DNA from: a virus
DNA length: 64,000 nucleotides
Direction: 5' to 3' (one strand)
Virus record (IMG/VR): IMGVR_UViG_3300030098_002071
Coordinates: 13,759 to 77,758 of that record
Every line of letters begins with the position of its first letter. Position 1 is the stretch's first letter. The position numbers and the translations under genes were made by a program. The notes under the pieces were generated by a model. The model worked only from the letters and a program-made list of their open reading frames with translations, was not told where the DNA came from and made no database searches. This document shows positions 10,091 through 63,659 of this stretch, in pieces.

Positions 10091-10360
10091 ATGAGTGATA
10101 TAGAAGAAGGTTTGTTTTCGGTTCGGCACGTAGAAGTTAATCCGGTTAAGCGTGTAGGTGTACGTGATAACGATCTATTAGGAACCTCTACAGAAATAGA
10201 GGTAAGCATAGGCGAAGCTACATGGATACTAAATTTATTCGGTAATAGTGATCCGTATACTTTGATTAAGTTATTAGAAGATGGTGGGGTTGCTAATGTG
10301 AGTATAAAGAGACGGCTAGGTGATGAGAAAGATAATACAAAATTAAAATCCGTAAAATAA
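10091..10360 (+). CDS. Hypothetical protein
   Basis: AAGGAG RBS before ATG 10091. Confidence 0.7.
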   Translation: MSDIEEGLFSVRHVEVNPVKRVGVRDNDLLGTSTEIEVSIGEATWILNLFGNSDPYTLIKLLEDGGVANVSIKRRLGDEKDNTKLKSVK

Positions 10361-10382
10361 ATTTTAAATAAGGAGAGTAATC

Positions 10383-11324: not shown

Positions 11325-11562
11325 GGCTATGGGTTTAGGTTATAAACCAATAAGGTTAGAGGTTAAGCCTGATGGTATTGAATTCTGGGACTATACGGGC
11401 GTAACAGGAAGACAAGGGAGAGAACTTATACAGGAGGAAGATTTACCTGAAGAAGTTATGCGTAAGTATTCACTACTTGCTATAGCTGAAGTAGGTACTG
11501 AAGTATACGGAATCGGTTCAAGAGATACCGAAACTATTTATCACATATCAATAAATATATAG
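11317..11562 (+). CDS. Hypothetical protein
   Basis: EDLPEEVMRKYSLL...EVYGIG motif; overlaps the previous gene. Confidence 0.7.
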   Translation: MSRAMGLGYKPIRLEVKPDGIEFWDYTGVTGRQGRELIQEEDLPEEVMRKYSLLAIAEVGTEVYGIGSRDTETIYHISINI

Positions 11563-12624: not shown

Positions 12625-12803
12625 TGAGTTTAGATAGAGATATATTAGTAGGTATCCTCGACATTATATATGAAGAGTTACCTTCTGAAAGAGATAAAGA
12701 AGTTTTCTCTGAGGCGGTAAAAAATGCTCATACAGAGATAGCTACATTATTAACTATGTTAGCCGATATGGACAAAAAGGGGGACAATCGTGTTTTACAC
12801 TAA
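12624..12803 (+). CDS. Hypothetical protein
   Basis: GAGG RBS; TAATG overlap with the previous gene. Confidence 0.55.
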   Translation: MSLDRDILVGILDIIYEELPSERDKEVFSEAVKNAHTEIATLLTMLADMDKKGDNRVLH

Positions 12804-13041
12804 ATTAAATCATTTCGCTTTTTGGCTATGGGTTTGTTTATTTGTTGCTATGGCATGTACGCCCCTATTAGTAGAGATAGTTAAGAGTATATTAGAAGTT
12901 GTATGAAACCGTTTTATGAAGAAGAAGTATTTATAACGGGGGAGGCATCTAAGGATTCCTCTCACCGTTGTAAAAGAATACACAAACTAGTAAATTTAAA
13001 TTATCAAAGACTTGAAATGGCTCTAAGTGGATGGGTTATAG

Positions 13042-13326
13042 ATGACACCAGAAGCAAAAATAAAACATCAAGTTTACAAAGTATTGCGTAAAAACAATGC
13101 TTATTATTTTTCGCCTATCATGAATGGATATGGTAAATCAGGTGTACCTGACATAATTGTGTGTTATAATGGGAAGTTTGTAGGTATTGAATGCAAGGTC
13201 GGTAAGAAGAAACCTACAGAGTTACAACAAAAAAATTTAAATGAAATTGAGTCATCAGGAGGGCATACGCTAGTAATTAACGAAAACAATATATTAGCGG
13301 TGCAGGATTTACTTAATAAAATGTAA
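13042..13326 (+). CDS. VRR-NUC domain nuclease (Holliday-junction-resolvase-like)
   Basis: TPEAKIK...GVPDIIVC..GKFVGIECK......LQ PD-(D/E)XK pattern. Confidence 0.9.
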   Translation: MTPEAKIKHQVYKVLRKNNAYYFSPIMNGYGKSGVPDIIVCYNGKFVGIECKVGKKKPTELQQKNLNEIESSGGHTLVINENNILAVQDLLNKM

Positions 13327-13382
13327 AGGTTTTCCTGTAGTGTTTGTGGGTTTTAATTGGTTACCACATACTCTGCAATTCC

Positions 13383-13410
13383 GTATGGGGTCATAATTAT
13401 GGCTTCATAC
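13383..13410. promoter_or_regulatory. 28-bp palindromic operator-like site 6, upstream of DNA polymerase
   Basis: GTATG-GGGT-CATAATTATG-GCTT-CATAC, extended by TTCC/GGAA arms. Confidence 0.75.
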
Positions 13411-13441
13411 GGAAACCAGTTCCAACACAGGAGGGTGTATC

Positions 13442-15286
13442 TTGGACTTAGTTACGTTAGATTTTGAGACTTATTATGATGATAAGTATTCACTATCAAA
13501 AATGACTACAGAAGAATATATAAATGACGATAGATTTGAAGCTATTGGAGTGGCTGCCAAAGTTAATGATGGCGAAACTGTATGGTGCACTGGTAATTTT
13601 ACTGAGCTTGAAAAATTTTTAATTCCTTTTAATCTACAAAACTGTGCTGTCCTAGCACATAACTGTATGTTTGACGCTGCCATACTAAATTGGATTTATG
13701 GCATAAAACCTAAACTTTTACTAGATACTTTAAGTATGTCTCGTGCTTTACGTGGAATTCAAGCAAGGCATAGTTTATCTGCTCTAGCTCAAGAGTTTGA
13801 AGTGGGCGAGAAAGGTACTGAAGTTGTAAAAGCAAAAGGCGTAACTAGAGAAGATTTCTTACGGGACAGAGCCTCGCTTTCTGAGTATGGAGGTTATTGT
13901 AAGAATGATGTTGAGCTAACTAAAAAGATATTCGATATTTTGGGAAAAGGTTTTCCTAGGAAAGAATTAGAGTTAATAGATATAACCTTAAGGATGTTCA
14001 CAGAACCCGCATTAAAATTAAATACTCTCTTACTAAATGATCATTTAGATAAAACTATACAGCACAAGGAAAAGTTACTAGCTGACAGTAAGTATGAAAA
14101 AGAAGTTTTAATGAGCAATCCGCAATTCGCAGAGGTACTAAAAGAATTAGGAGTAGAGCCTCCCACTAAGATATCTCCACGTACAGGAAAAGAGACATTT
14201 GCATTTGCCAAAGCAGATAAAGATTTTCAAGCATTGCAAGAGCATGAAGATTTAAGAGTGCAAACCGTAGTTACAGCTAGACTTGGAGTAAAGTCTACGC
14301 TGGAGGAAACTAGAACCAAACGGTTTATAGGTATAGCTGAAAGAGTAGGGATGTTACCGATTCCATTACGTTACTGTGCCGCACATACTACACGATGGGG
14401 TGGGTCAGATAAAATTAATCTGCAGAATTTACCTAGTAGGGGGGTAAATGCGAATACCTTGAAGAAAGCCATAGTAGCACCTTCGGGTTATTCAGTAATA
14501 AATACCGACTCATCCCAAATAGAAGCTAGAACATTGGCTTGGCTTTCTAAGCAAAATAATTTAGTCAAAGCGTTTAAAGAAAAAGAAGATGTCTACAAGA
14601 TTATGGCTTCAAAAATATACCAGAAAAGAATTGATAAGATAACCAAAGGAGAAAGGTTTATAGGCAAGTCTGTAATTTTGGGTTGTGGCTATGGCATGGG
14701 TGCTAAGAAGTTTAAATTATTCATGGAGGTACAAGGAGTAAAACTAACAGATAACGAAGCCGAAGCAATTATAGAGACATATAGGGATTTTAATGAAAAA
14801 ATAGTTGATTTTTGGGGAGGTGTAAATTCCGCATTATACCGAATGATATCGAATGATACTAAAACATATGTGGTAGGTAATGGCCTTATAGAATCTAAAG
14901 GTTCTGGGTTTGTACTTCCTAGTGGTTTAGTTATACAATATCCTGATTTAAAAGTAAAAACTGAAGGAGAAGGTAGGGAAAAGAAAAATAGTATGGTATA
15001 CACATCTCGTATGGGGGACACATACATATACGGAGCTAAGTCAGTAGAGAATATAACGCAAGGAGTAGCGAGATGCATCATAGGGGAACAGATAATACAG
15101 ATAGCTAAAAAATACCGTGTGGTATTAACTGTACATGATTCTGTTATATGTTTAGTCAGAAACGATGAAGTATCACCCGCACTTGATTATATTGAATCCT
15201 GTATGAGATGCACCCCTAAGTGGGCTGAAGGATTACCATTGGATTGTGAGTCAGGAGTAGGAAGAAGTTATGGCGAATGTGAATAG
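13442..15286 (+). CDS. polA: DNA polymerase family A with 3'-5' exonuclease
   Basis: Exo DFETY and AHNCMFD; NLQNLP; motif A DSSQIEAR; motif B RFIGKSVILGCGYG; motif C VHDS. TTG start after AGGAGG. Confidence 0.95.
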   Translation: MDLVTLDFETYYDDKYSLSKMTTEEYINDDRFEAIGVAAKVNDGETVWCTGNFTELEKFLIPFNLQNCAVLAHNCMFDAAILNWIYGIKPKLLLDTLSMSRALRGIQARHSLSALAQEFEVGEKGTEVVKAKGVTREDFLRDRASLSEYGGYCKNDVELTKKIFDILGKGFPRKELELIDITLRMFTEPALKLNTLLLNDHLDKTIQHKEKLLADSKYEKEVLMSNPQFAEVLKELGVEPPTKISPRTGKETFAFAKADKDFQALQEHEDLRVQTVVTARLGVKSTLEETRTKRFIGIAERVGMLPIPLRYCAAHTTRWGGSDKINLQNLPSRGVNANTLKKAIVAPSGYSVINTDSSQIEARTLAWLSKQNNLVKAFKEKEDVYKIMASKIYQKRIDKITKGERFIGKSVILGCGYGMGAKKFKLFMEVQGVKLTDNEAEAIIETYRDFNEKIVDFWGGVNSALYRMISNDTKTYVVGNGLIESKGSGFVLPSGLVIQYPDLKVKTEGEGREKKNSMVYTSRMGDTYIYGAKSVENITQGVARCIIGEQIIQIAKKYRVVLTVHDSVICLVRNDEVSPALDYIESCMRCTPKWAEGLPLDCESGVGRSYGECE

Positions 15287-49212: not shown

Positions 49213-50121
49213 TTATGCAGCTCCTTCGGAACCAAAAAGTCCACGCCAATCAGTAAACCCGAAAGAATATCTTTCACGCACTTTATAGCGTACATTCCCT
49301 GTTTCAAAGTCACCTTCCATGCCCTTTTTAAGAGGAGAACGTTGGAACATTTTTAAGCCATCAGGAACATCAGTTTTGACGAAGAATGCATCCGAGTCTG
49401 AAAGTCTACGCATAATATGGTAGCCTTGTGGTAAGTAACCACCAGACCTAATAGCATTGATGTCGTTATCAGCTGTGCCTGTTCTAAGCTGTGACTCTAG
49501 TAACCTTTCTGCCACAAAAGTGTAAGCAGTTGGGACAATTAACATTGTGCCTTGTGCAGCAACCCTAAGTCCACGATCGTCTTTCATATCAGCAATCTGA
49601 ATAAGAATAGACTCTAGTGAAGTTTCGGAAAGGTCTGCAGCAGTAGCCAATGTGTTACTTTGGTTCCCGTTACGAGTTGGATGAGATGTGCTTAAAAGAG
49701 TCACCCCATCACCACCTGTAAAGCCAGCAGTTGTTGCATTGTTAAGAATATTTGCTGCTTTAATTTCTTTAGTTGCTGCCATTGAACGTGCTAATGCTTT
49801 TGTGTAACGAGAAGCAATCGATCCATACTGGCCATCCTCTTCTGCCTCTTCTGTTATACTGAAAGCTAAAGCGATTGTTTCATGCTGATAGCGTGCAGTC
49901 CATTGCTGGCTTGCAGTATCATATGATATAGCAGCACCTTCATTCTTAACCGGAGCATTACCAAACCCCTCTAACAAAACATCTTCTTCAAATGCTCTGT
50001 TTGAGCTATTGGCTTCGAACACCGGAGCGTGCTCTGGTGGATAACTATCATACTCAAGACCGAAGAGGGTGTTCAATCCTGGCTCGAGCATTTTAGCAAA
50101 TTGAGCTCTATTCATTGCCAT
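49213..50121 (-). CDS. Major capsid protein (Mu gpT-like family)
   Basis: RAQFAKMLEPGLN.LFGLEY, LARSM..TK, GGDGV.L....HP, DFETGNVRYK.RERYSFG..DWRG. Confidence 0.9.
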   Translation of the reverse strand: MAMNRAQFAKMLEPGLNTLFGLEYDSYPPEHAPVFEANSSNRAFEEDVLLEGFGNAPVKNEGAAISYDTASQQWTARYQHETIALAFSITEEAEEDGQYGSIASRYTKALARSMAATKEIKAANILNNATTAGFTGGDGVTLLSTSHPTRNGNQSNTLATAADLSETSLESILIQIADMKDDRGLRVAAQGTMLIVPTAYTFVAERLLESQLRTGTADNDINAIRSGGYLPQGYHIMRRLSDSDAFFVKTDVPDGLKMFQRSPLKKGMEGDFETGNVRYKVRERYSFGFTDWRGLFGSEGAA

Positions 50122-50714: not shown

Positions 50715-51194
50715 TTAATCATTCATGATCGATACATCTTGACCACGACTCGTTGTTGTTTGCCTATCTTGCGATATTGGCAACCCCGAGCGTCTTCCCA
50801 ATTTTTCCAGATCGTTGGCGACGGACTCATTTTGCTCTGCGTTTTTACCGGAGTAATAGTCTTTCATTGCTCTGTGTTTTTCCACAGGCATTTCGCACAG
50901 CAACATTCCTTCAACACCAATACAACCTGCCCATTGACCGTGATTAATAGTTGGGTATCTCTTATCACTCACTGTGTCCGAGGGACGTGGGTTCCAGCCT
51001 GCACGCATACGTTTATACACGTTGTCTGGAGTTTCTTTACCTTGAATCGAGGTAGCAATCCACCTTTGGACCATTCCTTGTCGAGGTTCAGGAGCATCCA
51101 ATAAAGAGGGTGGTTTCCATGCAGTTTCCTGCCGAGCCTCTTCTACTCGTATGTCTTTTCTAGTTTCGTTCGCTCTTACATTTCGTCTAGCCAT
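50715..51194 (-). CDS. Conserved head-module protein
   Basis: WKPPSLLDAP...RWI...N...R.GW...G.LLCEMP. Confidence 0.7.
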   Translation of the reverse strand: MARRNVRANETRKDIRVEEARQETAWKPPSLLDAPEPRQGMVQRWIATSIQGKETPDNVYKRMRAGWNPRPSDTVSDKRYPTINHGQWAGCIGVEGMLLCEMPVEKHRAMKDYYSGKNAEQNESVANDLEKLGRRSGLPISQDRQTTTSRGQDVSIMND

Positions 51195-52081
51195 TAGTTG
51201 TTCCTCCTTGATTGATTTCTAACTTCTGCTTCATATTTTTTTAAAGCATCCTGATCTGTTATACCAAGCTCTCTGGCCATCCTAAGTTGATCCTGCGTTA
51301 AACGAACTCTGTTACCTTTATAAACACCAGCTGAGCCACCAGCAGTGGGTGCAACAGGCGGTCTACTTTTTGCTCGCTTTGGTGTTTCTTTAGGATATAT
51401 TAACTCTGGATATATTTTTCGTAAACGATTATTTAATTCTTCGTAATATTCGGAGGAATTTTTATCCAAACCTTCCAGGTCTAATTGAACGTCTATGGCT
51501 CTTGCAGCAGCAGTTTCTTTCTCAAAACCTGCAGAGTTGAACCATTCATTTTCTCGCCACCAGCTCATTGCTTTCTGTGGAGGTGCTGGTTCGTTAGATC
51601 TTGGTTGAGCAGGAGGTTGCTGTTGTTGTGTAATTTGTGATTTCTGCAACTCGTTAACTCTAATCGCAGCTCTCATGTCAGCCAACTGCTCTGAAAAATT
51701 AACTTGAGCTTCTGTGTCACCCTCCTCTACAGCCTTAGTTAGTGCTGATCTGGTTTCTTGGTAGCGTTTTTGAAAGTTGTTTTCGGCTTGGTGCTGAGTG
51801 CCTTTTTCTAAACGATCTAGTCTAGCCTGCAACTGAGAGTATTGTTGCTGGAGTTCAGCAGTCTGTTGCTCAGCAGCTTTACGCTCTGATATTAATTTTT
51901 TAATTCTTTTTTGTACCTTTGCTCCATATTGCTCTTCAGTCGTTTCTTGCTCCACTTTTTGTTCAGGCTTTTGCTCTTCAGCATCGGTAATTTCAATCTG
52001 AAAATCCTCTTCTGAATTTTTTTGTTCTGCAACCTTACTGTCTATTTCCTGTTCTATTTCTTTTATCTGATCTTCAGCCAT
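51194..52081 (-). CDS. Putative scaffolding protein
   Basis: Acidic N-terminus, coiled coil (VQKRI.KL), W...N.WF, C-terminal VRLT.DQ..MA..LGI. Confidence 0.7.
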   Translation of the reverse strand: MAEDQIKEIEQEIDSKVAEQKNSEEDFQIEITDAEEQKPEQKVEQETTEEQYGAKVQKRIKKLISERKAAEQQTAELQQQYSQLQARLDRLEKGTQHQAENNFQKRYQETRSALTKAVEEGDTEAQVNFSEQLADMRAAIRVNELQKSQITQQQQPPAQPRSNEPAPPQKAMSWWRENEWFNSAGFEKETAAARAIDVQLDLEGLDKNSSEYYEELNNRLRKIYPELIYPKETPKRAKSRPPVAPTAGGSAGVYKGNRVRLTQDQLRMARELGITDQDALKKYEAEVRNQSRRNN

Positions 52082-52090
52082 AACAATCTC

Positions 52091-52456
52091 CTAATTAATA
52101 TAAGAGGTTATTTCAGCTCCTTCGGGAAGGATAGAAGTGACCTCGTCATCGTTTAATAAAAGCATTTTCTGGCCATTAACAATAAGTTTCTGACCTGAAT
52201 ATTTGCCATAAGTAATATCATCACCAACTTTTGGAAAATTACGAGATTTCCAAACTGCACCTGTATCTCTTTCTCTATAAGCTAAATCACCCATAGCTAA
52301 AATTGTACCATGTGCTGTTAGATACTCTTCTGCTTCGATTGCTTTGGTTGGGATCACAATACCACCTTGGGTATGTTTTTTTGGTTCATTGGGCTTTACT
52401 AAAATTTTCCAGCCCATTGGTACTGGTAAATCATGTTGATGAGACATGTTATTCAT
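52091..52456 (-). CDS. groES: Co-chaperonin GroES-like
   Basis: P.GWKILVKP...T.GGIVIP...KVGD...GKYSG...LLNDDEV. Confidence 0.85.
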   Translation of the reverse strand: MNNMSHQHDLPVPMGWKILVKPNEPKKHTQGGIVIPTKAIEAEEYLTAHGTILAMGDLAYRERDTGAVWKSRNFPKVGDDITYGKYSGQKLIVNGQKMLLLNDDEVTSILPEGAEITSYIN

Positions 52457-52853: not shown

Positions 52854-53606
52854 TTATTCGTCTTTTGTTAATCCAACACCTAAACCACCAACGCCAAAAA
52901 TTTTCATCAGCTGGCCTAAAACACCAACAGGTGGTTCTTCAGATATTTTATCCATGGCTTGATTGTACTCGTTCAGATCCATAGCATCCTCAAAGTCCAA
53001 AGCCTGCATCCTTTCACCGTAAACAGGAGTATCAACAGGCAGGTCTTTTAACTTTTCTTGTAATTGGTAAAATTTATCTCTCGCTGATCGGTCTTCAAAA
53101 TCAATAAATCTCTGATCAGGATTCATTTTAAAAACACCATAAGGATAACCCAACTCACTCATGGCTCGAGTGCGATGGCGACCTTGATGCCCTTTAATGT
53201 AAACTGCTGGTGCTTCAGGAGTTACACTGTAACGCAAAAAAGGCATATAGTCTAGTAAATATTTTTGCCTTTCCTGACCGATCATACTCAACGCATTGTC
53301 CATTTTTGCCTGATCAGACTCTGGTAAAGGCATTGCGAGTTTTCTAAAATCTGACGGAGCGATGGTAACAACTTGTGATGGTACAACTGTGCCTTCTGGA
53401 GTGACTGTTGGAGTAAAAGCATCGTAAAGCTGTTGGGGTTCGTAAACATCTACCAGCTCCGGATTCTCATCTATAAAACGCTGTAAACGAGGATCTATGT
53501 ACTTTTCAGCCAACTTTTTATCAGCTTTATTCTTTATAGACTCTAAGAAATTACCCAGCTCTGGTCGGGTTGCAAGCAACTTCATTGCTCTGGTAACTCT
53601 TGCCAT
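52854..53606 (-). CDS. ParB/Srx-like domain protein
   Basis: I.PSDFRKLA...PFL...IKGHQGRHRTRAM..LG resembles the ParB-N GxxR motif. Confidence 0.5.
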   Translation of the reverse strand: MARVTRAMKLLATRPELGNFLESIKNKADKKLAEKYIDPRLQRFIDENPELVDVYEPQQLYDAFTPTVTPEGTVVPSQVVTIAPSDFRKLAMPLPESDQAKMDNALSMIGQERQKYLLDYMPFLRYSVTPEAPAVYIKGHQGRHRTRAMSELGYPYGVFKMNPDQRFIDFEDRSARDKFYQLQEKLKDLPVDTPVYGERMQALDFEDAMDLNEYNQAMDKISEEPPVGVLGQLMKIFGVGGLGVGLTKDE

Positions 53607-55975
53607 TATTGAGCTGGCTCCTCTTGATCTAGTGTCGATAAAGCTCCAGCACCTGCTGCGGTTCCCACAGCAATATTAAATAAGGGTTGTCCTTGCTTAA
53701 CAGCTTTTTTCATCTCTGGAGTAATTCTAATCAGAGTTACCGGAAGGTTTGATTCATCCATTCCTGGCTCGTCTCCAAAATCAGCTCTCCCAATCTCCCC
53801 ATCCGTTAATTCACTATTATATTTTTTAGCATACTTTTGTAAAACACTAGGGATTTTACGATCATAAACCGTTTGATACATTTTTCTGTAAGCTCCTTGG
53901 GGAGCTTCTTTTGTTGCTGGACCTGGACTCCATTTTGTAACTAAAGTTTCTGATTTAGGAACCATGACATAAGTATAGCCTTCATCGACTGCTTGTCTCA
54001 TAAGTTTCTTCAACGCCAACTCGTGCCAAGTATCTTGCCAAGGATTGGGAACATCGGAGTTCGGTTTTGTGTGCACACTTCCTATTTGAGTTAGTTTTGC
54101 TGCAGCAGAAGATAATTTCTCAGCTAAACTATTCTTGTTGGTGTAATCAGCCGAGCCAACGAGCGTGGGAAAGGTTCTGTGATCGTAGGAGTCAGGAGTT
54201 AGTTTGCTGTCGCCATAAATAATAGACTTCAATCTTGGATTTTTTAAAACCTCATCAATCTGATCTCCAGACAAAACAATTTCATTCAGACTTCGTATCA
54301 TATGCGTAATTGCATCTGATACGTCATCGGCAAACATAGCAGTATAATATGGTGCAGAAGGATTTGATTCCGCCATACTCGCATTTTTAATTTTTTTCGC
54401 AGCATATAAAATTCCTTTTCGATAATTTGAGTGGTGGCGAGCATCTACGCCTAACATTTCAAATGCCTCTGCCAAATATTCAAGGTCATCTAACAACGGG
54501 AACACATCTCCTTCCATAATTTTTGTTCTTTGCTGTCGTCTGCTGTTTGCCATTGCATGATCCGATTGCAGCTCATCACCGTATAAAATTGTAGCGTTTG
54601 GCGAAATACTGTCGTCTGCTGTTTTAACAGGAGCATTCCAGTCAGAAGCCATCACACTCGCCACCACAGTATCCTTTGGTTTGTTAAAATGACCTTTTTT
54701 AAATTCTCCAACTTCAGGAGAAGTTATTAAAAATTCTCTTCTATTTTGCTGTGGTGGCATCATATATTCTTCTTCATCAATCTCTACCAGATCAGACAAA
54801 GCATGCTCATCCATCCACTTTAATCCTGTTGATGCGGCACCATCCGTGTACCCTTTTCTGTCTAAAAACATTCTTGCTTGGACTCCAGCTTCTGCTAAAG
54901 TGCTTGCAGTGAAATCTGTCAATTGCTCCCCATCCGTCGTTTTTATATAATACTTTCGGTCCATGGGGTTGGAGGGGTCACGCTCTCGGACCATAGTAAG
55001 GACGTGCTCACCATGAATCATTATCGCAGTTTCTCCTGGCTTTCCACGGTCAAGATCAAATTCAAGCTGGTTTCGGTCTTCGATTTCGTCGATATCTCTG
55101 TTTTCAACAACATTAACCGTAAATCTCTTATCATTAAGATGCTGTGCAAATTTTTCTTTAGTAAATTCAGAATCTAAATTTAGATCCATTGCTTTTATTT
55201 CATTATTGAAGGACTTTACAGGATAACCTTGTTTTACAGCCTGCGACCTCATCTCATTAACAAAATCTTGCCCAGTCCCCTTACCACGTTTAATTAACGG
55301 GATTGTTTCCTGTACAACGCTGTAAAATCCTTCTTGGTCTTGGTAAGGCAAATTAGTTAAAGCACCTTTGGGACCACCAGGAACTATGTTAAGTTGATTC
55401 AATCGTGATAATTGTGACAGTGGACCTTTTAATTCTGTTGGTTTGAGTTTTTCTGATAAATTTTTTGCAAACTCTTTTACAGCAGGGTTTTTCAGAGCTG
55501 TAACCATTGGCTTACCCAGCACAGTTGCTTCGACAGCCGACAACCCTAAATCAGCCATTGGTAAAATAGGTGAATAAATCGGATCCACTTTAGGATCTAT
55601 TTCTTTTAAATCTCGGTATGCTTGTTGACCAGCAAACAATAAACCAGCCGGAGTAAAGTCCAAAGCTCCAATACCACCTTGTGTTAAAGGTGCATTAATA
55701 TCGCCAACAATATACCTAGCAGCACTTTGTGCTTTGTCACGTGGTACTCCTGCTTTGCTTATTACATTACGAACAAAATCACGAGTCGTGTCTTGAACAG
55801 AAGCTGGTGGCAACTGGGTTAGCTCTGCTGGACGTTCTGGTTCTGGTTCTGGTAAAGGTTGTAAATCTATAGAGGTTGGTCGAGGCTTATATCCAGGAGC
55901 TACAACCTTGGCCACAGGGTCAACAAACTCTTGGTAAACTTTATAAAAAGATTCTGGTAAAATCTTAGCCATCAA
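53606..55975 (-). CDS. 789-aa polyvalent-type virion protein
   Basis: GFYS...KGTG domain; GHF...DELQSD...W.ELALK..MRQAVDEGY...YD.KIP...ITPEMK...GQPLF, recalled from large phage virion proteins. Confidence 0.55.
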   Translation of the reverse strand: MMAKILPESFYKVYQEFVDPVAKVVAPGYKPRPTSIDLQPLPEPEPERPAELTQLPPASVQDTTRDFVRNVISKAGVPRDKAQSAARYIVGDINAPLTQGGIGALDFTPAGLLFAGQQAYRDLKEIDPKVDPIYSPILPMADLGLSAVEATVLGKPMVTALKNPAVKEFAKNLSEKLKPTELKGPLSQLSRLNQLNIVPGGPKGALTNLPYQDQEGFYSVVQETIPLIKRGKGTGQDFVNEMRSQAVKQGYPVKSFNNEIKAMDLNLDSEFTKEKFAQHLNDKRFTVNVVENRDIDEIEDRNQLEFDLDRGKPGETAIMIHGEHVLTMVRERDPSNPMDRKYYIKTTDGEQLTDFTASTLAEAGVQARMFLDRKGYTDGAASTGLKWMDEHALSDLVEIDEEEYMMPPQQNRREFLITSPEVGEFKKGHFNKPKDTVVASVMASDWNAPVKTADDSISPNATILYGDELQSDHAMANSRRQQRTKIMEGDVFPLLDDLEYLAEAFEMLGVDARHHSNYRKGILYAAKKIKNASMAESNPSAPYYTAMFADDVSDAITHMIRSLNEIVLSGDQIDEVLKNPRLKSIIYGDSKLTPDSYDHRTFPTLVGSADYTNKNSLAEKLSSAAAKLTQIGSVHTKPNSDVPNPWQDTWHELALKKLMRQAVDEGYTYVMVPKSETLVTKWSPGPATKEAPQGAYRKMYQTVYDRKIPSVLQKYAKKYNSELTDGEIGRADFGDEPGMDESNLPVTLIRITPEMKKAVKQGQPLFNIAVGTAAGAGALSTLDQEEPAQ

Positions 55976-56167
55976 TCACACTTGACCTGCGGAAAGGGTG
56001 GCAGCAAGGATTTGCAATACTTCTTGAAAGCCTTTATCGAGTTTTTTGGCCAATTGAGCAAACTTTTTAGGACTAATCTCGTTGGACTTTATTCCTCGCT
56101 TTTCTAAAAAACTTTTTGCTGCTCGTATTTCTGCCTGTGCTACTTTTTTAATTTTCGCTTTCGCCAT
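55976..56167 (-). CDS. Small basic protein
   Basis: 63-aa Lys-rich ORF with AGGAG RBS. Confidence 0.65.
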   Translation of the reverse strand: MAKAKIKKVAQAEIRAAKSFLEKRGIKSNEISPKKFAQLAKKLDKGFQEVLQILAATLSAGQV

Positions 56168-56810
56168 TAGTTGCTCCTAATAAATTTAATCCACCTACAG
56201 GCACAACTGCCTTTAATATATTACCTGATTTTGCATCTTCAGGGTTGAACTTGCCAAATATAGACCTTACATCTTCAGGGTAAAACAATCCAACTGTTCC
56301 TGGCTCACTCGTTTTATATCCTCTAAAGCCTAATTTTTTAAGAACTTTTTGTACATCTGGATCTTCTAGATATTTGTAATTTCCTTCACCAATTTCATTA
56401 ACATATTGAAGCCAAGCATAATCTCTATAATTTTTTTTTGAAAAAGCAGATCTTAAATTAGTTTCTAATTTTTCCATTTGCTTTTTATTTGTAAAATCAA
56501 ATATTTTTCCTTTTTTTATTTTAACAGGGTAGGTTGTATAAGGTTCAAATTCCTTATCTCCAAGCTCATCAAATGAGTATCTGGCTTCTTCTAATTCTTC
56601 CAGTATGTCTTCAGCATATGTAGGGTCTGATGTAAAATATATGGCACCTCTTGTTGCTCTATCACCAAAGGATGATGGGTAATCGACTTCAAATTTTTCA
56701 ATATCTGGGTTTGGTGAAACATGGTAATAGGTCTTTTTGCGAAAACTTTTTAAAAAGTCAGAAGCATTCTCAATACCTTCCTTTGCTAATTTTTTAAGAA
56801 CACCAGCCAC
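56148..56810 (-). CDS. Putative ADP-ribosyltransferase (ART-PolyVal-like)
   Basis: YYHVS...I..F...GAIYFTSDP.YA...YPV...GF.G.....V..F.PEDVRSIF.KFNP pattern. Confidence 0.65.
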   Translation of the reverse strand: MAGVLKKLAKEGIENASDFLKSFRKKTYYHVSPNPDIEKFEVDYPSSFGDRATRGAIYFTSDPTYAEDILEELEEARYSFDELGDKEFEPYTTYPVKIKKGKIFDFTNKKQMEKLETNLRSAFSKKNYRDYAWLQYVNEIGEGNYKYLEDPDVQKVLKKLGFRGYKTSEPGTVGLFYPEDVRSIFGKFNPEDAKSGNILKAVVPVGGLNLLGATNGESEN

Positions 56811-56813
56811 AAC

Positions 56814-57071
56814 TCACCAAGCCTTGCACGACCAGTAACGTGCCTTTGTTTTTGGACCAGGATTATCGCAGTTGTGTCTTGAGCGGAAATTACTCCTACG
56901 ACCTTTTTGGTTTTTCTTAATACGCATATTCGGATCACCAAACGTCACACGCTTCACCCTATCCCCATCCATGACGTAAACCACGCTTTTCTTTTTCCCA
57001 TAGCTGGTTTCCCCCTTTCTAATTCTTCGAGGGTTGTTGAGCTTTACTTTTTTGCCTTTATACTCTGCCAT
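56814..57071 (-). CDS. Small basic protein (DUF6321-like)
   Basis: V.FGDPNM.IK....RR.NFR.RHNCD....K.KARYWSC. Confidence 0.75.
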   Translation of the reverse strand: MAEYKGKKVKLNNPRRIRKGETSYGKKKSVVYVMDGDRVKRVTFGDPNMRIKKNQKGRRSNFRSRHNCDNPGPKTKARYWSCKAW

Positions 57072-57223
57072 TAACTTTTGTGCACCTTTTGAATTTCAAA
57101 ACTTGCTTTAGTGCTTGCTCCCTTATGCGGTTTGTAACCACCTGCCGGATTTTTCATTAACTTATAACTGTTACCAGATTTCATCCAGTGGAAACCTTTT
57201 GGTGCTTGTACGGATTTTTTCAT
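57071..57223 (-). CDS. Small basic protein (50 aa)
   Basis: Hand-translated MKKSVQAPKGFHWMKSG...YKPHKGAS.KASF. Confidence 0.65.
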   Translation of the reverse strand: MKKSVQAPKGFHWMKSGNSYKLMKNPAGGYKPHKGASTKASFEIQKVHKS

Positions 57224-57372
57224 GATCGTTTTCTCCTAACAGTTTTTGCTGCTGATTTAAAATTAGCCTTTGTTGGTGAGCCTTTAGCTCCTGGTTTTTT
57301 CATACGCTCACCAGACCCAGCTTTGATTCTTTTACGCTTTGCGTGTATGTTTGCGTATAGTCCTTTTTTCAT
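57220..57372 (-). CDS. Small basic protein (50 aa)
   Basis: Hand-translated MKKGLYANIHAKRKRIKAGSGERMKKPGAKGSPTKANFKSAAKT. Confidence 0.7.
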   Translation of the reverse strand: MKKGLYANIHAKRKRIKAGSGERMKKPGAKGSPTKANFKSAAKTVRRKRS

Positions 57373-57620
57373 GTTTTCTTCTTTTTCAATAAATCTGCGT
57401 CAGCTTTTCTCGCACCACCCTTACCACTCACAAAACTATTAACCCTGCCTCTAGCCCAAGCAGTCATACTCACATTTTTACTACCACTGCTCAAATAAGC
57501 ACCTTTGCCTCGGTTCAGAACATTTTTCAGCTGACCATAAGTAAATTTGCTATTTTTAGCTTTATCTTTTAAAAATTTTTCATCACTTTTGCTTACTTTA
57601 GGTTTTGGCTTGTTTGGCAC
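57369..57620 (-). CDS. Small basic protein (DUF5824-like)
   Basis: L..V..RG.GAY.SSGS......WA..RVNSF......K.D.DL. Confidence 0.7.
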   Translation of the reverse strand: MPNKPKPKVSKSDEKFLKDKAKNSKFTYGQLKNVLNRGKGAYLSSGSKNVSMTAWARGRVNSFVSGKGGARKADADLLKKKKT

Positions 57621-57786
57621 GACTCTCGCTCACTTTCTTAATGTTTATGTATTGACCCTTTTTGTACTTTTCTCTTGTTGATAAAATTTCTTTTTCTTTT
57701 GCTTTTTTGTTCCTTGCTCCCGAGAGATAGCTCTTAGGAACTCCTTTTTTAGTTTTTGCAACTTTTCTAAACTTTCTTGCTACCAT
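57598..57786 (-). CDS. Small basic protein
   Basis: GVPKSYLSG motif; Lys-rich. Confidence 0.65.
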   Translation of the reverse strand: MVARKFRKVAKTKKGVPKSYLSGARNKKAKEKEILSTREKYKKGQYINIKKVSESRAKQAKT

Positions 57787-57901
57787 TTTTATATCCTGAT
57801 GCGTAAATTGCTCGACCTTGTTTTTCGGCTTGTTTTCGGGTTTTATATATTTTACCTGATTTTCCCCAACGATAACCGTTTTTGACTTTATAGACTGGCA
57901 T
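57767..57901 (-). CDS. Small basic protein (44 aa)
   Basis: Hand-translated MPVYKVKNGYRWGKSGKIYKTRKQAEKQGRAIYASGYK; TAATG coupling. Confidence 0.65.
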   Translation of the reverse strand: MPVYKVKNGYRWGKSGKIYKTRKQAEKQGRAIYASGYKNGSKKV

Positions 57902-58671
57902 TACTTTTTCTTTTTAACTTGTTCTCGAATCCATTCAAGTTTATCATCGAATGTAATATTTCTAAATGATTTAAGTTTTTTGTAATAAGGTGTTTCTTCT
58001 ATGCCTTTGCTTTTTATCCACTCTATAATAGCGTCTTCCTCATTTTCTGGAGCATCGGGACCATGCTCAAGTCGAAATGCTTCTGTCGTTATATCATCAC
58101 CAGCAACACCACCATAATCAACTGTTTTGTCACCAAAGTATTTCTTTTTGACATCAGCAACAGCTTTTGTTAGCTCTCGTCCATCCTCTGTTTCATCATA
58201 CTCAATAGTGTCAAGCACCTCTATGTTCGCTCCTTTGGAGAATGCTTCGGGTGATTGGTGGTAAGTATCGTTATTTTCAAAATAGTTTAAATATTCAGCC
58301 ATGTCTTTTTCCAAAAGCTCTTTTTTAGAGATCGGATCTCCTGTTCTTACCTCCCAGAGGTCTTTGAGAAAATTCATCATTTGATCAAAGCTCTTGAATA
58401 CTGTCCCACCAAAGGATTTAATTTCTCCTGGTGGTCCAATAATTGGCTCCTGCTCTAATCCTTTTTCAATTAAAGTTGTCAACACTCCACGAGGCAATGC
58501 GGTTTGAGCTACTGTACTTCCTGCCCTTTTTAAAAATTCCCTGCGAGAAGGGACAAACTCCTGCTTTTTCAAAGGTACAAGAGCACCTGCACTCTTAGTC
58601 TCTTCTAAATTGCCTAAAGAACCTAAATCTTTGGGCAATAAAGTCTTTATTATTTTGGTAATTTTAGCCAT
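57901..58671 (-). CDS. Twin-arginine-motif protein 1 (shared leader, acidic C-domain)
   Basis: SRREFLK at residue 42; first ~65 aa nearly identical to 58671-59267. Confidence 0.75.
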   Translation of the reverse strand: MAKITKIIKTLLPKDLGSLGNLEETKSAGALVPLKKQEFVPSRREFLKRAGSTVAQTALPRGVLTTLIEKGLEQEPIIGPPGEIKSFGGTVFKSFDQMMNFLKDLWEVRTGDPISKKELLEKDMAEYLNYFENNDTYHQSPEAFSKGANIEVLDTIEYDETEDGRELTKAVADVKKKYFGDKTVDYGGVAGDDITTEAFRLEHGPDAPENEEDAIIEWIKSKGIEETPYYKKLKSFRNITFDDKLEWIREQVKKKK

Positions 58672-59267
58672 TAATCACCAGCATCATACTTTAATTTTGA
58701 TTGAGGTATAACATTAGCAAAAATTTTAGGAGCACCAGAAAAAAGTGATCCAAATTTATCAAATATTTCTTGATCAGTTGCCTCAGGATATTTTTCTCTT
58801 AGCTCATCAACCATATCTTCGAGAAAACTCCCCTCAAAATCTTCTACATCTCCTATCTCCATTTCTAATAAATCTTTAATAAAATCAGCCTCATCCATGT
58901 CCATCATAAGCTCCGAGTCCATCTCCCGACCTTCATCAACTGCCATTTCAACTAACTGATCCATTTTATTTTTAAAAGAACTTAAACCGCTTAAACTTAA
59001 ACTAGGAAGAGAGGGCGTTTTAATTGCTTCTTTTGCTAAAGGAGTTTTAATTGCTTCTTTTGCTAAAGTTGCTAATGCCCCACGAGGCAATGCGGTTTGA
59101 ACTGCTGTGCTTCCTGCCTTTTTTAAAAACTCCCTACGAGAAGGGACAACTTCCTGTTTGTCCAGAGGCACAAGAGCACCTGCACTTTTAGCCTCTTCTA
59201 AATTGCCTAAAGATCCTAAGTCTTTGGGCAGAAGACTCTTTATTACTTTGGTAATTAGTCTGGCCAA
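58671..59267 (-). CDS. Twin-arginine-motif protein 2 (shared leader, very acidic C-domain)
   Basis: SRREFLK at residue 43; TTG start after GGAG. Confidence 0.75.
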   Translation of the reverse strand: MARLITKVIKSLLPKDLGSLGNLEEAKSAGALVPLDKQEVVPSRREFLKKAGSTAVQTALPRGALATLAKEAIKTPLAKEAIKTPSLPSLSLSGLSSFKNKMDQLVEMAVDEGREMDSELMMDMDEADFIKDLLEMEIGDVEDFEGSFLEDMVDELREKYPEATDQEIFDKFGSLFSGAPKIFANVIPQSKLKYDAGD

Positions 59268-59270
59268 TAC

Positions 59271-59552
59271 TTACTCCACAAGTCTTAACGGATCATGACC
59301 TAAAAGTTTATCCATCATCTCCCGAGCATCACCCTTACCCATCTTTACAATTTTAACTTCGCCATGAGGTTCGCTTTCCATCATCTCCTCGTCCTCGTCA
59401 CCAAAGCCCAACATCTCGTGATTGCAAAGCAACATAAAATTGACGAGCTGACCGTCGGTCATTTCAAGTCCTGCACTGTTATGAGCAAAGCCCATCTTGT
59501 TTTCAAAATCACTTGCCAAAACATCAATATTTTCTACATCAATACTAGCCAT
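59271..59552 (-). CDS. Acidic hypothetical protein
   Basis: AGGAG RBS; operon packing. Confidence 0.7.
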   Translation of the reverse strand: MASIDVENIDVLASDFENKMGFAHNSAGLEMTDGQLVNFMLLCNHEMLGFGDEDEEMMESEPHGEVKIVKMGKGDAREMMDKLLGHDPLRLVE

Positions 59553-59748
59553 CTTGTTCTCCTAAATTTTTTATTATACTACTAAAAGCACCGAGACTTG
59601 CTCCCTCAGCACCCATTCTACGTTTTATCTCCTCTATCTTTCTAAGCAGATATTCCGACATTTCAGCGTCCATGGGCTGTGCTGGTAGTTGCGAAGGAGC
59701 TTGGTTGCCTGAGAATGCTGCTGGATTAATTGGTGGGAGGTTGTACAT
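59545..59748 (-). CDS. Hypothetical protein
   Basis: Overlaps the portal stop; operon packing. Confidence 0.6.
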   Translation of the reverse strand: MYNLPPINPAAFSGNQAPSQLPAQPMDAEMSEYLLRKIEEIKRRMGAEGASLGAFSSIIKNLGEQDG

Positions 59749-62158
59749 TTTTCATTGCTTCCATTTGTATTTTTGCAGCGTTCTTTTCACGCTCCAGTTG
59801 TAAGTCAGCTTCTAATTTCCTGACCTTTGCCTCAAGGTCGGCTCGTGCCTTGGCTGCGTCTATTTCCATGTCTTGACGGGCTTCGGCTTGTTTAATCTGA
59901 ATGTCGGACTGTGCTTTGGCTTGGTCGGCAGCAATCTGAGCTTGTGTCCGTTGTTGTAGTGATTGAGCCTCAAGCTCGGCAAGTTGTTGCGCATATTGTA
60001 ATGGATCTCTCTGTTGTTGACCTCCCATATTAGCAATCCCGGCAATGGCTTGCATTTGAGGTGCCTGTTGAACCACTTGTGCAGCTCTCTGGCTAATCAT
60101 CATGTCGGTTTCCGGATCAATGTCCTCAAACTTAAATTGCGGATCACGTAAATTAGGCAAATTAGGCAACGGCATTGCGATACTTTCTTGCATTCGTTGA
60201 CGGTACAGCAACGCAATATGCTCGGCAATGTGAGCAGTTAGTATTGGTCCCATACTTTGTTGAGCAACAGGGTTGCCAGCCAGCGACGGATCTTGCATAA
60301 ACTGCATGTGAACCAAGATGTGTGCCTGATGATCTTGCTCAGGAAAAGCTCGGATCGCTTTGCCGTACATCACCGACATGTTCTCATCAATGGGATCAAG
60401 CCTCACAGCCTCGTCCGGCTCTTTTAAAACTTCCTCAATATTGGGTATCCGGATTGCTTCGTACATTCGCTTGTAAGCATTGTATCGGTCGTGGAGTTCG
60501 GGAGCACTATTTGCCATCTCAAGAATCGCCTGTGCTTGGGCAATGCGTTGTGCTGTGCTAAATATATTCGGGTCACTGACCGGAACAATGTCCACTCGCT
60601 CGTCAAAGTCTCTAGCATAAATAAAAGCATTGGCTCCTGCAACGCTAAACTCTAACTGCTCCGGCATATACTCTGCGTCTAATTGTGCTAACAGTTTAAA
60701 CTCTTCTCCTTGAGAGTGGTGAAGCCGTTTGTGAATAGCACTGAAACTTTTACTGCCTTGCTCTATTAAAGCAACCGTAGAACCAACTGGAGCGTTTGGG
60801 TTAACATCTCCAACATTTAAATCTGCTGTGGCTGCAAACCTCTGCCCAGCCTCAACAATAAACCCTAGCAACTGAAACAAAGTGCCACTGGGCTCTTTAA
60901 ACGGTAACGGCATAATGCTTTTATTTATGTCGTCAACAGTTGCGTCTAAATCTACAAACTCTCCAGGATTAACTTCTAAATCACCACCGGACACTCTGCC
61001 CTTTAACTTGAAGCCACCTTGCATATTGGCAAAACTAGCCGAGTCAAGCAAAGCTCTCAATGCACCAGTTGCAGCCTTACCCAAACCACCAATCAGATGA
61101 AAAAGTCCAAAACCGTAAAACCCTATCCCTGGAAGAAATTTATAGCTAACAAACCAGTTGCGACGTTCTTTGTTCTCGTCGTCTTCGTGCCAGTTTCTTC
61201 GCACACTTACAATTTTTTCTGAATCCGCATCTATTGTAACAACATACGGCAACGCCACCTCGTCCTCTTCTTGCTCGTCTTCAAACGATTGATAAACGTG
61301 CATCTCCAGCAACGTCATTATTTTATCTTGCGTTCCTTCACCGTACTTATCCACACCTTCAATCTGACCCACTGTGTCGTCACCATACTGTGCATTGTCT
61401 GGGTCGCTTTTGACAGCCATATAGTAACCATTTTGAACATATTTGTTATATTCATTTTTTGGCATCCTTATAACATGAGTGTAACGAACCGATGTTCTCA
61501 AATCATTACTCTCTGGCGAAACAACAAAGTCTTCTGCCCTCACAAACATGCTACGTTGGCGTTGGAGGTTAGCGTCCCACCATATTTTTTTAAATGTATG
61601 ACCAATTAACGGGAGTTGAAAAAGCATCTGATCTAGGTCAGGGAAATACTCCGGCATCTCCTGAGTAATTTGGTAGTTCAGAAACTCTCTAACTCTGCGA
61701 GCTTGGTCTTCTAGTTCTTCGTTTGGTTCGCCAATGATAACTGTTTTAACTGGACCACCCGAAGGATACAGCTCGGCAATAGCACGAGCATTGAACTGGG
61801 TTGCAGCCTCGGCAATCATCGGGTGAATAACAGTGCTCAATCCCCGACTGGCTCGTTCTTCTTCGCCTTCTTCTAAACCACCCTCAACATCTAATGTCTT
61901 CAGCCCAGACTTGTAACGATTCTCCCACTCGGATCTTGATTCTCGGTCGTTGTTGTAATAGCCCATGAGCTGACTACCAATCCGATCAAGCGTTTTGTGA
62001 TCCATGTCCTCAGCCAAGTTATCATCAAATGCGGAATCTTTTTCTGGCGGTAAATCAGAATCAGGATCTCCAATCAAAACATCATTGCCTAAAACCTCAA
62101 TCTGTAAATCATCCGGTGGTGCTCCCTCTGCAAAGGGAATATTATCATTCTCAGCCAT
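59726..62158 (-). CDS. Portal protein
   Basis: FDDNLAE...SR.EW, HPMIAEA..QF.ARA..EL.P..GPVKT, PG.GFYGFGL.HLIG, PLPFKEPS; Gln-rich C-terminal barrel; follows TerL. Confidence 0.9.
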   Translation of the reverse strand: MAENDNIPFAEGAPPDDLQIEVLGNDVLIGDPDSDLPPEKDSAFDDNLAEDMDHKTLDRIGSQLMGYYNNDRESRSEWENRYKSGLKTLDVEGGLEEGEEERASRGLSTVIHPMIAEAATQFNARAIAELYPSGGPVKTVIIGEPNEELEDQARRVREFLNYQITQEMPEYFPDLDQMLFQLPLIGHTFKKIWWDANLQRQRSMFVRAEDFVVSPESNDLRTSVRYTHVIRMPKNEYNKYVQNGYYMAVKSDPDNAQYGDDTVGQIEGVDKYGEGTQDKIMTLLEMHVYQSFEDEQEEDEVALPYVVTIDADSEKIVSVRRNWHEDDENKERRNWFVSYKFLPGIGFYGFGLFHLIGGLGKAATGALRALLDSASFANMQGGFKLKGRVSGGDLEVNPGEFVDLDATVDDINKSIMPLPFKEPSGTLFQLLGFIVEAGQRFAATADLNVGDVNPNAPVGSTVALIEQGSKSFSAIHKRLHHSQGEEFKLLAQLDAEYMPEQLEFSVAGANAFIYARDFDERVDIVPVSDPNIFSTAQRIAQAQAILEMANSAPELHDRYNAYKRMYEAIRIPNIEEVLKEPDEAVRLDPIDENMSVMYGKAIRAFPEQDHQAHILVHMQFMQDPSLAGNPVAQQSMGPILTAHIAEHIALLYRQRMQESIAMPLPNLPNLRDPQFKFEDIDPETDMMISQRAAQVVQQAPQMQAIAGIANMGGQQQRDPLQYAQQLAELEAQSLQQRTQAQIAADQAKAQSDIQIKQAEARQDMEIDAAKARADLEAKVRKLEADLQLEREKNAAKIQMEAMKNVQPPTN

Positions 62159-63659
62159 ACACTGTCATCCTTTTCTTTGGCAACTCGTCTTCGCCATCAT
62201 AATCAGCCGAGTGTGTCACAAACCATCCTTTGCGTAACCTCAGCCATGCTTGTGTGCAAGTATCCACAATATCATCATTGTCTCCTGCAGGAAATGCTGC
62301 ACAAATATCTATTAAGTCTTTTGCCCAATTACGATTAGAAGGATAAAATATTCTGCCATCCTCTAGCAAAGCAGAGCTGGCATGAGCACGAGCCTGTTTA
62401 TCTCGGTCAGGTGTATAGGCAATAACAGGAACTCCTGCCATACGTAAATCCTGAATTAAACTCTGGCCACTGGCTTTCTTTTCAATTAACACTGCGTCTG
62501 GCTCATATTCGTCATAGCTCTCCTGAGCAATTTTGCGTAACTCCGGATATATTACCCTATCATACCACATATCTAAAACAATTGCATTAATTTGACCCTT
62601 CTCCCTAAACACTCCCCAAGTAGTCCGAGCAGAATAAGATGTTTGCTCCTTTGTCCCATAAGCAGTGTCCCAACTTTGTAGTATATACTCAATTTCAGGA
62701 AGATACTCATTTTCCCATGGCACCCACCACTCTTTTTTTAATATTCCGCCACCTTTAGGCATTGGGCGTTGCTGCAGTTGACCAGCCGAAGCATAACTGC
62801 CCAAACTTTTCTCCAACACACTCATAGTTTTACTATCAACCCTTTCTGGCCAAAGCAACTCGCCCTCCTCAGTACGAGGGTCAGTAAAAAACAAACTTGA
62901 GCGAGTAGGTGTCGGATGACCGATCTCGTATCTGGCTGGAAGGCAGAGATGATCCCACTCGCCCTCTAGATCATTAGCGAGTATGTGCCCAGTAAGGTCT
63001 TGTTCATGCACTCGTTGCATTATCAGAACAAACGCTCCAGTCTTCGGGTCATTAAGGCGAGTTTGCATGGCTTGATCCCACCATTCAAGAACACCCTCTC
63101 GGACAGTGCTCGACTCTGCCTCTCTAACATTGTGCGGATCATCAATCACAATAATGTCTCCACCCTCACCAGTTAACGCTCCGTCCACTGAGGTTGCTAT
63201 CCGGTAACCAGTCTTGCTGTTCTCAAACCGTTGCTTCTGATTCTGATCAGTGGTCAGCTCAAACATATCTCCAAAGTGCATTTTGTACCAAGGAGAATCT
63301 ATAAGCCTTCGGCATTTAACCGAGTCTCTAATCGACAGGCTGGAGGCGTAGCTGGCAAACAAAAAGCGTTTCTCTGGCTGAACAGCCCAAGTCCATGCAG
63401 GAAGTGCCACTGCCACCGAAATTGATTTCATGTGCCTTGGTGGAATGTTTATGATCAGTCTGCGGATCTTCCCCTCTACAACTGCCTGTAAATGGTCAGA
63501 TATTGCGTCTATGTGCCAATTATCGTAAAAATCCCGTCCAGGTTCAATCGTTGGCCAAGAGCTCTTTGTGAACTCCCTTAACGACCTCCGCATCTTCTCT
63601 GCTCGGATCTCCGTCAATGACAGCGTGCTCAAGTACTCGTTCAATCGTTGTGAGGTCAT
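62151..63659 (-). CDS. terL: Terminase large subunit (phage B)
   Basis: RLIINIPPRHMKS, TGEGGDIIVIDDP, IMQR, nuclease SWDTA, IEKKASG, FP...DD.VD. Confidence 0.95.
   Translation of the reverse strand: MTSQRLNEYLSTLSLTEIRAEKMRRSLREFTKSSWPTIEPGRDFYDNWHIDAISDHLQAVVEGKIRRLIINIPPRHMKSISVAVALPAWTWAVQPEKRFLFASYASSLSIRDSVKCRRLIDSPWYKMHFGDMFELTTDQNQKQRFENSKTGYRIATSVDGALTGEGGDIIVIDDPHNVREAESSTVREGVLEWWDQAMQTRLNDPKTGAFVLIMQRVHEQDLTGHILANDLEGEWDHLCLPARYEIGHPTPTRSSLFFTDPRTEEGELLWPERVDSKTMSVLEKSLGSYASAGQLQQRPMPKGGGILKKEWWVPWENEYLPEIEYILQSWDTAYGTKEQTSYSARTTWGVFREKGQINAIVLDMWYDRVIYPELRKIAQESYDEYEPDAVLIEKKASGQSLIQDLRMAGVPVIAYTPDRDKQARAHASSALLEDGRIFYPSNRNWAKDLIDICAAFPAGDNDDIVDTCTQAWLRLRKGWFVTHSADYDGEDELPKKRMTVYG

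Follow-up and report, generated by a model that had tools for sequence, protein, structure and literature searches.

The internal proteins of phage T4 are diverse, and the only feature common to them is a capsid targeting sequence (CTS; PMC3012670). Polyvalent-protein domains have been described as virion-packaged, injected effectors with T4 Alt as their prototype, and ejected minor head proteins that associate with the portal, SPP1 gp7 and Mu F among them, are classically encoded directly after the portal gene (Iyer et al. 2017, PMC5512222). Encapsulin cargo enters HK97-fold shells via short or disordered terminal tags, for example TVGSL (PMC8346489). Here, we describe two adjacent genes, A and B, in the 3′ 64 kb (the window) of a complete 77,758-bp IMG/VR virus record (IMGVR_UViG_3300030098_002071; GC content 39%), which encode different acidic proteins behind a shared N-terminal leader that contains a twin-arginine (RR) motif. 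We consider, with a probability of roughly 0.45, that this shared segment is a capsid-loading leader on swappable cargo. The nearest cultured relatives of the virus are the roseophages CRP-901/902 (portal 72% identical), followed by the pelagiphage HTVC023P (PMC10149686).

The leader resembles the T4 CTS, which is found on IPI, IPII, IPIII and Alt, in being a short conserved N-terminal segment on unrelated, fast-evolving accessory proteins encoded near head genes, and in both systems one member is of the ADP-ribosyltransferase (ART) type, namely Alt in T4 and an ART-PolyVal-family protein in three related contigs (L002, L005 and L007). However, the leader is modular and about 70 residues long, whereas the T4 sequence has about 10 residues and no twin-arginine element. 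A search of the complete record for a prohead protease of the gp21 type (S77) or the HK97 type (S78) was negative, and PHROGs gave no protease match, which leaves cleavage unsupported. The phage belongs with CRP-901/HTVC023P and not with T4, and packaging is a proposal based here on gene position. Polyvalent, MuF and SPP1 gp7 proteins share with this locus the position directly after the portal, a variable, effector-like content and an ART-PolyVal relative in the slot; in contrast to those multi-domain polypeptides, separate small genes with a common leader are present here, and MuF (PF04233) had no match in the complete record at E 1. As in encapsulin cargo-loading peptides (PMC8346489), there is a terminal extension, predicted to be disordered, with Gly-x-Leu motifs (LGSLGNL, GALVPL and GALATL, compared with TVGSL), and by analogy these motifs could dock cargo inside an HK97-fold shell.

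The shared leader of genes A and B

Genes A and B lie in tandem, with the start codon of A (ATG) overlapping the stop codon of B by 1 nt; B starts with TTG and has GGAG 8 nt upstream.

58671-59267, minus strand: gene B, 198 residues, comprising the leader (residues 1-70, net charge +6) and an acidic helical cargo domain (net charge -18)
57901-58671, minus strand: gene A, 256 residues, comprising the leader (residues 1-70, net charge +7) and a different acidic helical cargo domain (net charge -14)

A BLASTP comparison of the two proteins gave 56/73 identities (77%, E 2e-35) confined to residues 1-73, in agreement with the original prediction, made from the window's sequence, of about 65 shared N-terminal residues. 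The similarity that it had noted in the DNA is also real, the 5′ regions of the two genes being 85% identical, and its claim of complete divergence beyond the leader holds, since tblastn returned no similarity past this point except low-complexity acidic stretches. No further copies of the leader were found in the 77,758-bp record beyond A and B.

Between the two leaders, synonymous divergence (dS) is 0.46 and non-synonymous divergence (dN) is 0.106, corresponding to a dN/dS of 0.23 that is similar across all three sub-segments, and the 40 residues ahead of the RR pair are conserved like the motif itself (dN/dS 0.13-0.25). Because dN/dS is alike in the sub-segments, the whole leader, and not the motif alone, must be translated and under purifying selection. 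A recent duplication or gene conversion was rejected on the leader dS of 0.46, as was an alternative start codon nearer to the RR pair, because purifying selection acts on the 40 residues upstream of it, which all homologues conserve.

The leader is composed of at least three separable modules, and is not the single unit originally described. In B, the linker to the cargo domain is additionally duplicated.

59193-59267, minus strand: part 1 of the B leader, residues 1-25, a basic amphipathic helix followed by LGSLGNLEE
58600-58671, minus strand: part 1 of the A leader, residues 1-24
59148-59192, minus strand: spacer of B, residues 26-40 (AKSAGALVPLDKQEV), the equivalent of a repeat, VVPxEKQE, that has 0-3 copies in homologues
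59085-59147, minus strand: twin-arginine-like module of B, residues 41-61 (VPSRREFLKKAGSTAVQTALP), with SRREFLK at 59121-59141
58492-58554, minus strand: twin-arginine-like module of A, residues 40-60 (VPSRREFLKRAGSTVAQTALP), with SRREFLK at 58528-58548
59017-59068, minus strand: perfect 27-bp tandem duplication in B, through which the linker LAKEAIKTP stands twice between the leader and the cargo domain

Part 1 follows the pattern M-A-K/R-I-T-K-x-I-K-x-L-L-P-K-D-L-G-S-L-G-N-L-E/K-E. In homologues (P0019, P0054, P0023 and L006, 8668-9276), the 8-residue spacer unit VVPxEKQE occurs in 0, 2 or 3 copies; as its copy number varies, the RR pair can stand anywhere from residue 29 to residue 50. The RR module itself, whose two SRREFLK motifs had been placed at exactly the correct coordinates, reads VPSRREFLKKAG-x7-LP, the pattern across homologues being V-P-S-R-R-x-F-L-K-K/R-A-G-x7-L/M-P. 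It is followed by R-G-A-L-x-x-L, and a Pro-rich linker closes the leader.

Two AlphaFold2 runs gave a mean predicted local distance difference test (pLDDT) score of 50 and 46, with residues 1-90 at 30-43. The leader is predicted to be disordered, with short, low-confidence helices at residues ~2-12, 44-55 and 62-73, and the cargo domains are modelled as helical and poorly defined. Neither A nor B could be assigned to a credible family in Pfam, PHROGs or NCBIfam, sub-threshold Tat (twin-arginine translocation) models aside; the ESM Atlas returned only unnamed viral clusters with scores of at most 0.81, and tblastn of gene A against 50,697 phage records gave no match.

In the DNA, the P-S-R-R-E-F-L-K codons of both genes form a 5-bp hairpin (TCCCT..AGGGA) with a T-run, similar to a terminator (59131-59146 and 58538-58553, minus strand). 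A role at the RNA level was rejected, because L006 uses other codons for the motif that break the hairpin stem, and for the same reason we regard the hairpin as a by-product of the coding sequence.

Cargo variety in the post-portal slot

Relatives of the leader were sought by word index among 5.8 billion proteins and by a full hidden Markov model search among 1.84 billion representatives, and both searches found it exclusively in marine sequences of a narrow range, mostly from viral fractions. There, at least six unrelated types of C-terminal cargo domain stand behind the leader, and the RR pair is invariant in about 50 homologues. This is the comparison of RR conservation with C-terminal variety by which the original prediction had proposed to be judged, and the outcome lends good support to its central idea of a targeting leader that is reused on different cargo.

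Genes A and B belong to a late operon that also contains the genes for DNA packaging and head formation.

62151-63659, minus strand: TerL, in the late operon
59726-62158, minus strand: portal, at the head of the slot, sharing 72% identity with its CRP-901/902 counterpart
52854-59748, minus strand: accessory cassette of the head operon, variable in content, in which successive open reading frames (ORFs) abut or overlap (gaps of -23 to +3)
53606-55975, minus strand: 789-residue protein, residues 59-210 of which are homologous to an alternative N-domain that carries the cargo of A elsewhere
49213-50121, minus strand: capsid protein, in the same late operon

The cassette encodes, in order, a protein of 67 residues, an acidic protein of 93 residues, B, A, six tiny basic ORFs, and proteins of 220, 63, 789 and 250 residues; downstream of it follow GroES, a scaffold-like 295-residue protein at 51194-52081, two small proteins and the capsid protein. 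All junctions from TerL to the 250-residue gene lie between -23 and +3 nt, which leaves no space for promoters of their own, so that A and B should be expressed together with the head genes.

In the window and the four contigs with context, leader genes were always located in the slot just after the portal. L002, L005, L006 and L007 share an order of TerL, portal, a protein of ~65 residues and one of 93 residues, then one to three tandem leader genes, then small basic ORFs. When L001 (CRP-901), L002 and L005-L009 were compared, the slot held between zero and three leader genes, with differing content; CRP-901, the closest cultured relative, has no leader and carries other genes in the slot. 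In L002, L005 and L007, part 1 heads a protein of 338-364 residues without the RR motif. This protein has more than 800 homologues, most of them labelled PF18760 (ART-PolyVal), and its own Pfam score is sub-threshold.

The cargo domain of A was also found on a different N-domain, in proteins of the P0002 type (L008, 705-1778; L009, 10004-10963), which occupy the place held here by the 789-residue gene. Since the content of the slot varies and the cargo domain of A moves between N-domains, we regard the slot as a shuffling cassette. The 789-residue protein contains PKGALTNLP, comparable to PRGALxxL of the leader, and has SRL in place of SRR. At this junction, P0002 has SRRNVL with a 17-residue hydrophobic stretch, the 789-residue protein has SRLNQL, and an 868-residue homologue in L005 lacks an Arg pair altogether. 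In the middle of the 789-residue protein there is a second RREFL (residues 411-415, QNRREFLITSPEVGEF; 54730-54744, minus strand); it corresponds to RREIL in the 868-residue homologue and has no hydrophobic stretch after it.

Looser similarities were seen at other N-termini of the slot. The 250-residue protein (52854-53606, minus strand) and a 364-residue relative in L006 (14701-15795) start with MARVTRAMKLLATRPELGNFLESIK and MGAFSKVIVPKLGNFLQSIK, respectively, which are 33% and 31% identical to part 1 of B over a 35-residue alignment. In CRP-901, gp68 (456 residues, 10172-11542) and gp66 (519 residues, annotated as 'nuclease', 12321-13880) both start with M-[GA]-N-P-[LV]-K-..-I-..-L-G-..-V-I-D-T, a motif which hints at a shared leader of another kind in this slot of other lineages.

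The twin-arginine module and Tat signals

Tat signal peptides (TIGR01409, PF10518) and the RR module have in common the sequence S-R-R-x-F-L-K, with invariant RR and variable x, and a stretch of small residues that ends in Pro and is followed by a basic residue. The Tat consensus, S/T-R-R-x-F-L-K, is present as SRREFLK at residues 42-48 of A and 43-49 of B, and among the homologues x varies between E, D, G, K and N while F, L and K are kept and the residue at -1 is S, G, E or Q. Searched against the genome, TIGR01409 finds these two sites only, both below its cut-off of 16.7 bits: the scores of the two were 13.2 and 13.4 bits with hmmscan, and 15.6 and 15.3 bits in a six-frame search. Of the 29 profile positions, only 2-15 align in A and 2-19 in B. 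The Pfam TAT_signal model, PF10518, did not match A or B even at E 10.

The TATFIND rule places the RR pair within residues 2-35. In the proteins described here, by contrast, it lies behind the conserved 40-residue segment, at residues 43-44 in A, 44-45 in B and 49-50 in P0023; only in the deletion variant P0019 is it found at 29-30. The uncharged stretch after the motif is exactly 11 residues long (AGSTVAQTALP in A, AGSTAVQTALP in B), compared with the 13 or so or more expected of a Tat signal, and is polar, with a mean Kyte-Doolittle value of 0.52, an invariant Gln and K/R and R as its boundaries, in line with the weak hydrophobic region that had been noticed at the outset. Nearly all homologues have 11 uncharged residues here, and a few have 19. 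There is also no conserved signal-peptidase site, the A-x-A region being A-L-A in B, V-L-T in A and A-L-T in P0022. Judged on sequence by the usual criteria, the RR module falls outside the Tat signal family. The pattern RR[ED]FLK[KR]AG matched more than 599 metagenome stretches, which yielded one useful locus; these matches are taken to be mostly ordinary Tat signals.

The leader profile additionally retrieved two proteins of another kind, P0024 and P0026, and a follow-up search added about 20 more (P0175-P0194) on contigs of up to 423 kb, a length that assigns them to giant phages; the contigs of P0178, P0185 and P0192 measure 233-423 kb. Their module follows L-D-E-A-x-F-N-P-S/G-R-R-G-F-L-K-K-A-G-x7-M-P-K/R/T-G-L-A-G-A-A and is present in one or two copies at positions 26-587, each heading a cargo unit and preceded by L/V-x-E. 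With the leader of A and B these modules share L-D-x-x-E-x-x-P-[SG]-R-R-x-F-L-K-K-A-G-x7-[LM]-P-[KRT]-G and the location directly before cargo. They differ in being more hydrophobic, in lying inside long proteins after L/V-x-E, often mid-protein where Tat signal peptides are not, and in reaching a curated Tat model: of the two that were scanned, P0024 passes both models and P0026 only TIGR01409. In precomputed annotation P0177 is labelled PF10518, and variants with T in place of K/R have 19 uncharged residues. Residues 35-63 of B and 107-135 of P0177 are 59% identical over 29 ungapped residues (E 1e-4), a match that takes in the L-D-x-x-E-x-x-P stretch ahead of the RR pair. Homology between the leader and the giant-phage modules is not claimed firmly from such alignments, as the significance for P0024 and P0026 derives partly from two copies in each; however, given the same layout and spacing in giant-phage proteins, the module is a recurring phage element and not a one-off. 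Some of the giant-phage proteins also carry Sigma70_r4 (PF04545).

The Tat export originally put forward as one option for A and B is hence unsupported in its classical form, given the curated models and the rules for position and hydrophobic region, and retains support from the very similar giant-phage module, which reaches a curated model in the two proteins scanned.

Proposed capsid loading, its alternatives and neighbouring genes

According to the capsid-loading proposal, the modular, disordered leader would mark non-essential, swappable proteins of the head operon for entry into the procapsid, and the proteins bearing it would travel with the DNA into the next host, as T4 internal proteins with a CTS do. 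Part 1, with its helix and LGSLGNLEE, would be the loading tag and would dock on the scaffold, the capsid interior or the portal; the spacer and the Pro-rich linkers would act as tethers; and the RR module (VPSRRxFLKKAG-x7-LP-RG) would be a separate junction element directly before each cargo domain. Once in the next host, the acidic cargo domains would act early. This proposal fits best because variable slot content, a leader on unrelated cargo and an ART-family member occur together, and gene context (the slot between portal and scaffold, its variable content, and ART-PolyVal with part 1) likewise favours the virion-loading option among those first suggested. The position of A and B in an overlapping ORF chain that runs from TerL and portal towards scaffold and capsid, the combination of basic leader and acidic cargo, and purifying selection on the leader are consistent with it. 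Part 1 ends in L-E-E or L-K-E, which can be compared with the L/I-x-E of prohead proteases; as no S77 or S78 enzyme was found, we do not propose cleavage.

Several observations weigh against capsid loading. Packaging is deduced from gene position only, and with no MuF, S77 or S78 protein found in the record, a 'load, then cut' step has no identified enzyme. The likeness to part 1 on other cassette proteins, of 250 and 220 residues, is weak. Moreover, the strict RR pair, the variable x and the conserved F-L-K mirror what TatC recognises, which pure docking does not explain. For the RR module taken by itself, a docking or structural element that merely looks like a Tat signal comes slightly short of even odds, a real Tat or inner-membrane address is a tentative possibility, and some other role is unlikely.

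The Tat-like conservation, with RR invariant in about 50 sequences, would be accounted for if part 1 packaged the proteins and the RR module then acted as a genuine Tat signal in the new host. That TIGR01409 picks out only the A and B sites in the genome, just below its cut-off at 15.3-15.6 bits, and that a very similar module occurs in at least 20 giant-phage proteins, with P0024 and P0026 reaching a curated Tat model, points in the same direction. We nevertheless consider injection followed by export unlikely, since the RR pair stands 43-45 residues in, the 11-residue stretch is polar (Kyte-Doolittle 0.5) with its invariant Gln, PF10518 gives no match and TIGR01409 stays under its cut-off, A-x-A is not conserved (ALA in B, VLT in A), and no known protease would shorten the n-region; small, highly acidic, helical cargo would also be more typical of cytoplasmic anti-restriction or DNA-mimic proteins than of proteins in the periplasm. 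It is similarly doubtful that the twin-arginine modules common to the CRP-901/HTVC023P-related marine group and to giant phages constitute a second-stage address. A simpler version, in which A and B, produced late, stay out of the virion and are exported through host Tat by the cell that makes them, for instance for envelope remodelling, superinfection exclusion or lysis timing, could draw on the perfect S-R-R-x-F-L-K with its following small-residue stretch and basic residue, on the near-threshold model scores and on the more than 599 metagenome matches. The same departures from Tat signals count against it, and in addition the 40 residues before the RR pair are as conserved as the motif, which is not expected of a Tat n-region; part 1 also heads an ART-family enzyme without the RR motif, the genes lie between portal and scaffold and not with lysis genes, and the module is internal, at positions 76-587, in the giant-phage relatives. 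Ordinary Tat substrates are thus rather improbable.

If the Tat likeness were instead coincidental, A and B might be assembly helpers, scaffold-like or portal-associated, that bind the capsid protein via a basic helix-loop-helix (RREFLKK ... GALATLAKE) and leave either ahead of DNA packaging or in the course of it. Their genes adjoin the portal upstream of the scaffold gene, AlphaFold2 predicts short helices at residues 44-55 and 62-73, with low confidence, and a basic leader with an acidic body recalls, by extension from P22 scaffolding biology, electrostatic scaffold-coat contacts. However, copy number (zero to three) and cargo type vary among close relatives and CRP-901 lacks leader genes altogether, so an essential role in assembly does not fit; a separate scaffold-like protein of 295 residues is also present. 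This leaves assembly helpers with a small probability, slightly below that of ordinary Tat substrates. Lastly, the leader might bind host TatBC without being transported, blocking Tat export or anchoring the protein at the membrane, which would agree with an RR consensus kept in front of a hydrophobic region too short and too polar for normal transport. Such a decoy would need neither many cargo domains nor a conserved part 1, and is very improbable.

Should the leader prove to be a loading tag, it would be a second case, unrelated to that of T4, of one address serving many cargoes, here in marine phages of an abundant group, and the acidic proteins would become candidate host-takeover or anti-defence factors that are injected and act early. 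Foreign proteins could then also be brought into these capsids by means of the leader. If the RR module is functional, phages would exploit the host Tat pathway for proteins that they bring along, a use of which no description was found in the literature searched, and a true second-stage address would allow pre-made, folded phage proteins to reach the periplasm or inner membrane only minutes after infection.

Among the neighbouring genes, the phage-encoded GroES (Cpn10, E 1.8e-12; 52091-52456, minus strand) lies just upstream of the scaffold-like gene, as it does in CRP-901. Directly after A, the six overlapping ORFs at 56814-57901 (minus strand) encode proteins of 44-85 residues with isoelectric points of 10.4-12.0 and net charges of +10 to +20. 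They are conserved in L005-L009 and CRP-901, the CRP-901 versions of two of them bearing the annotations 'DUF2213' and 'HVA1 family', and one of the six matches DUF5824; these small basic proteins could be candidates for packaged DNA-binding proteins.

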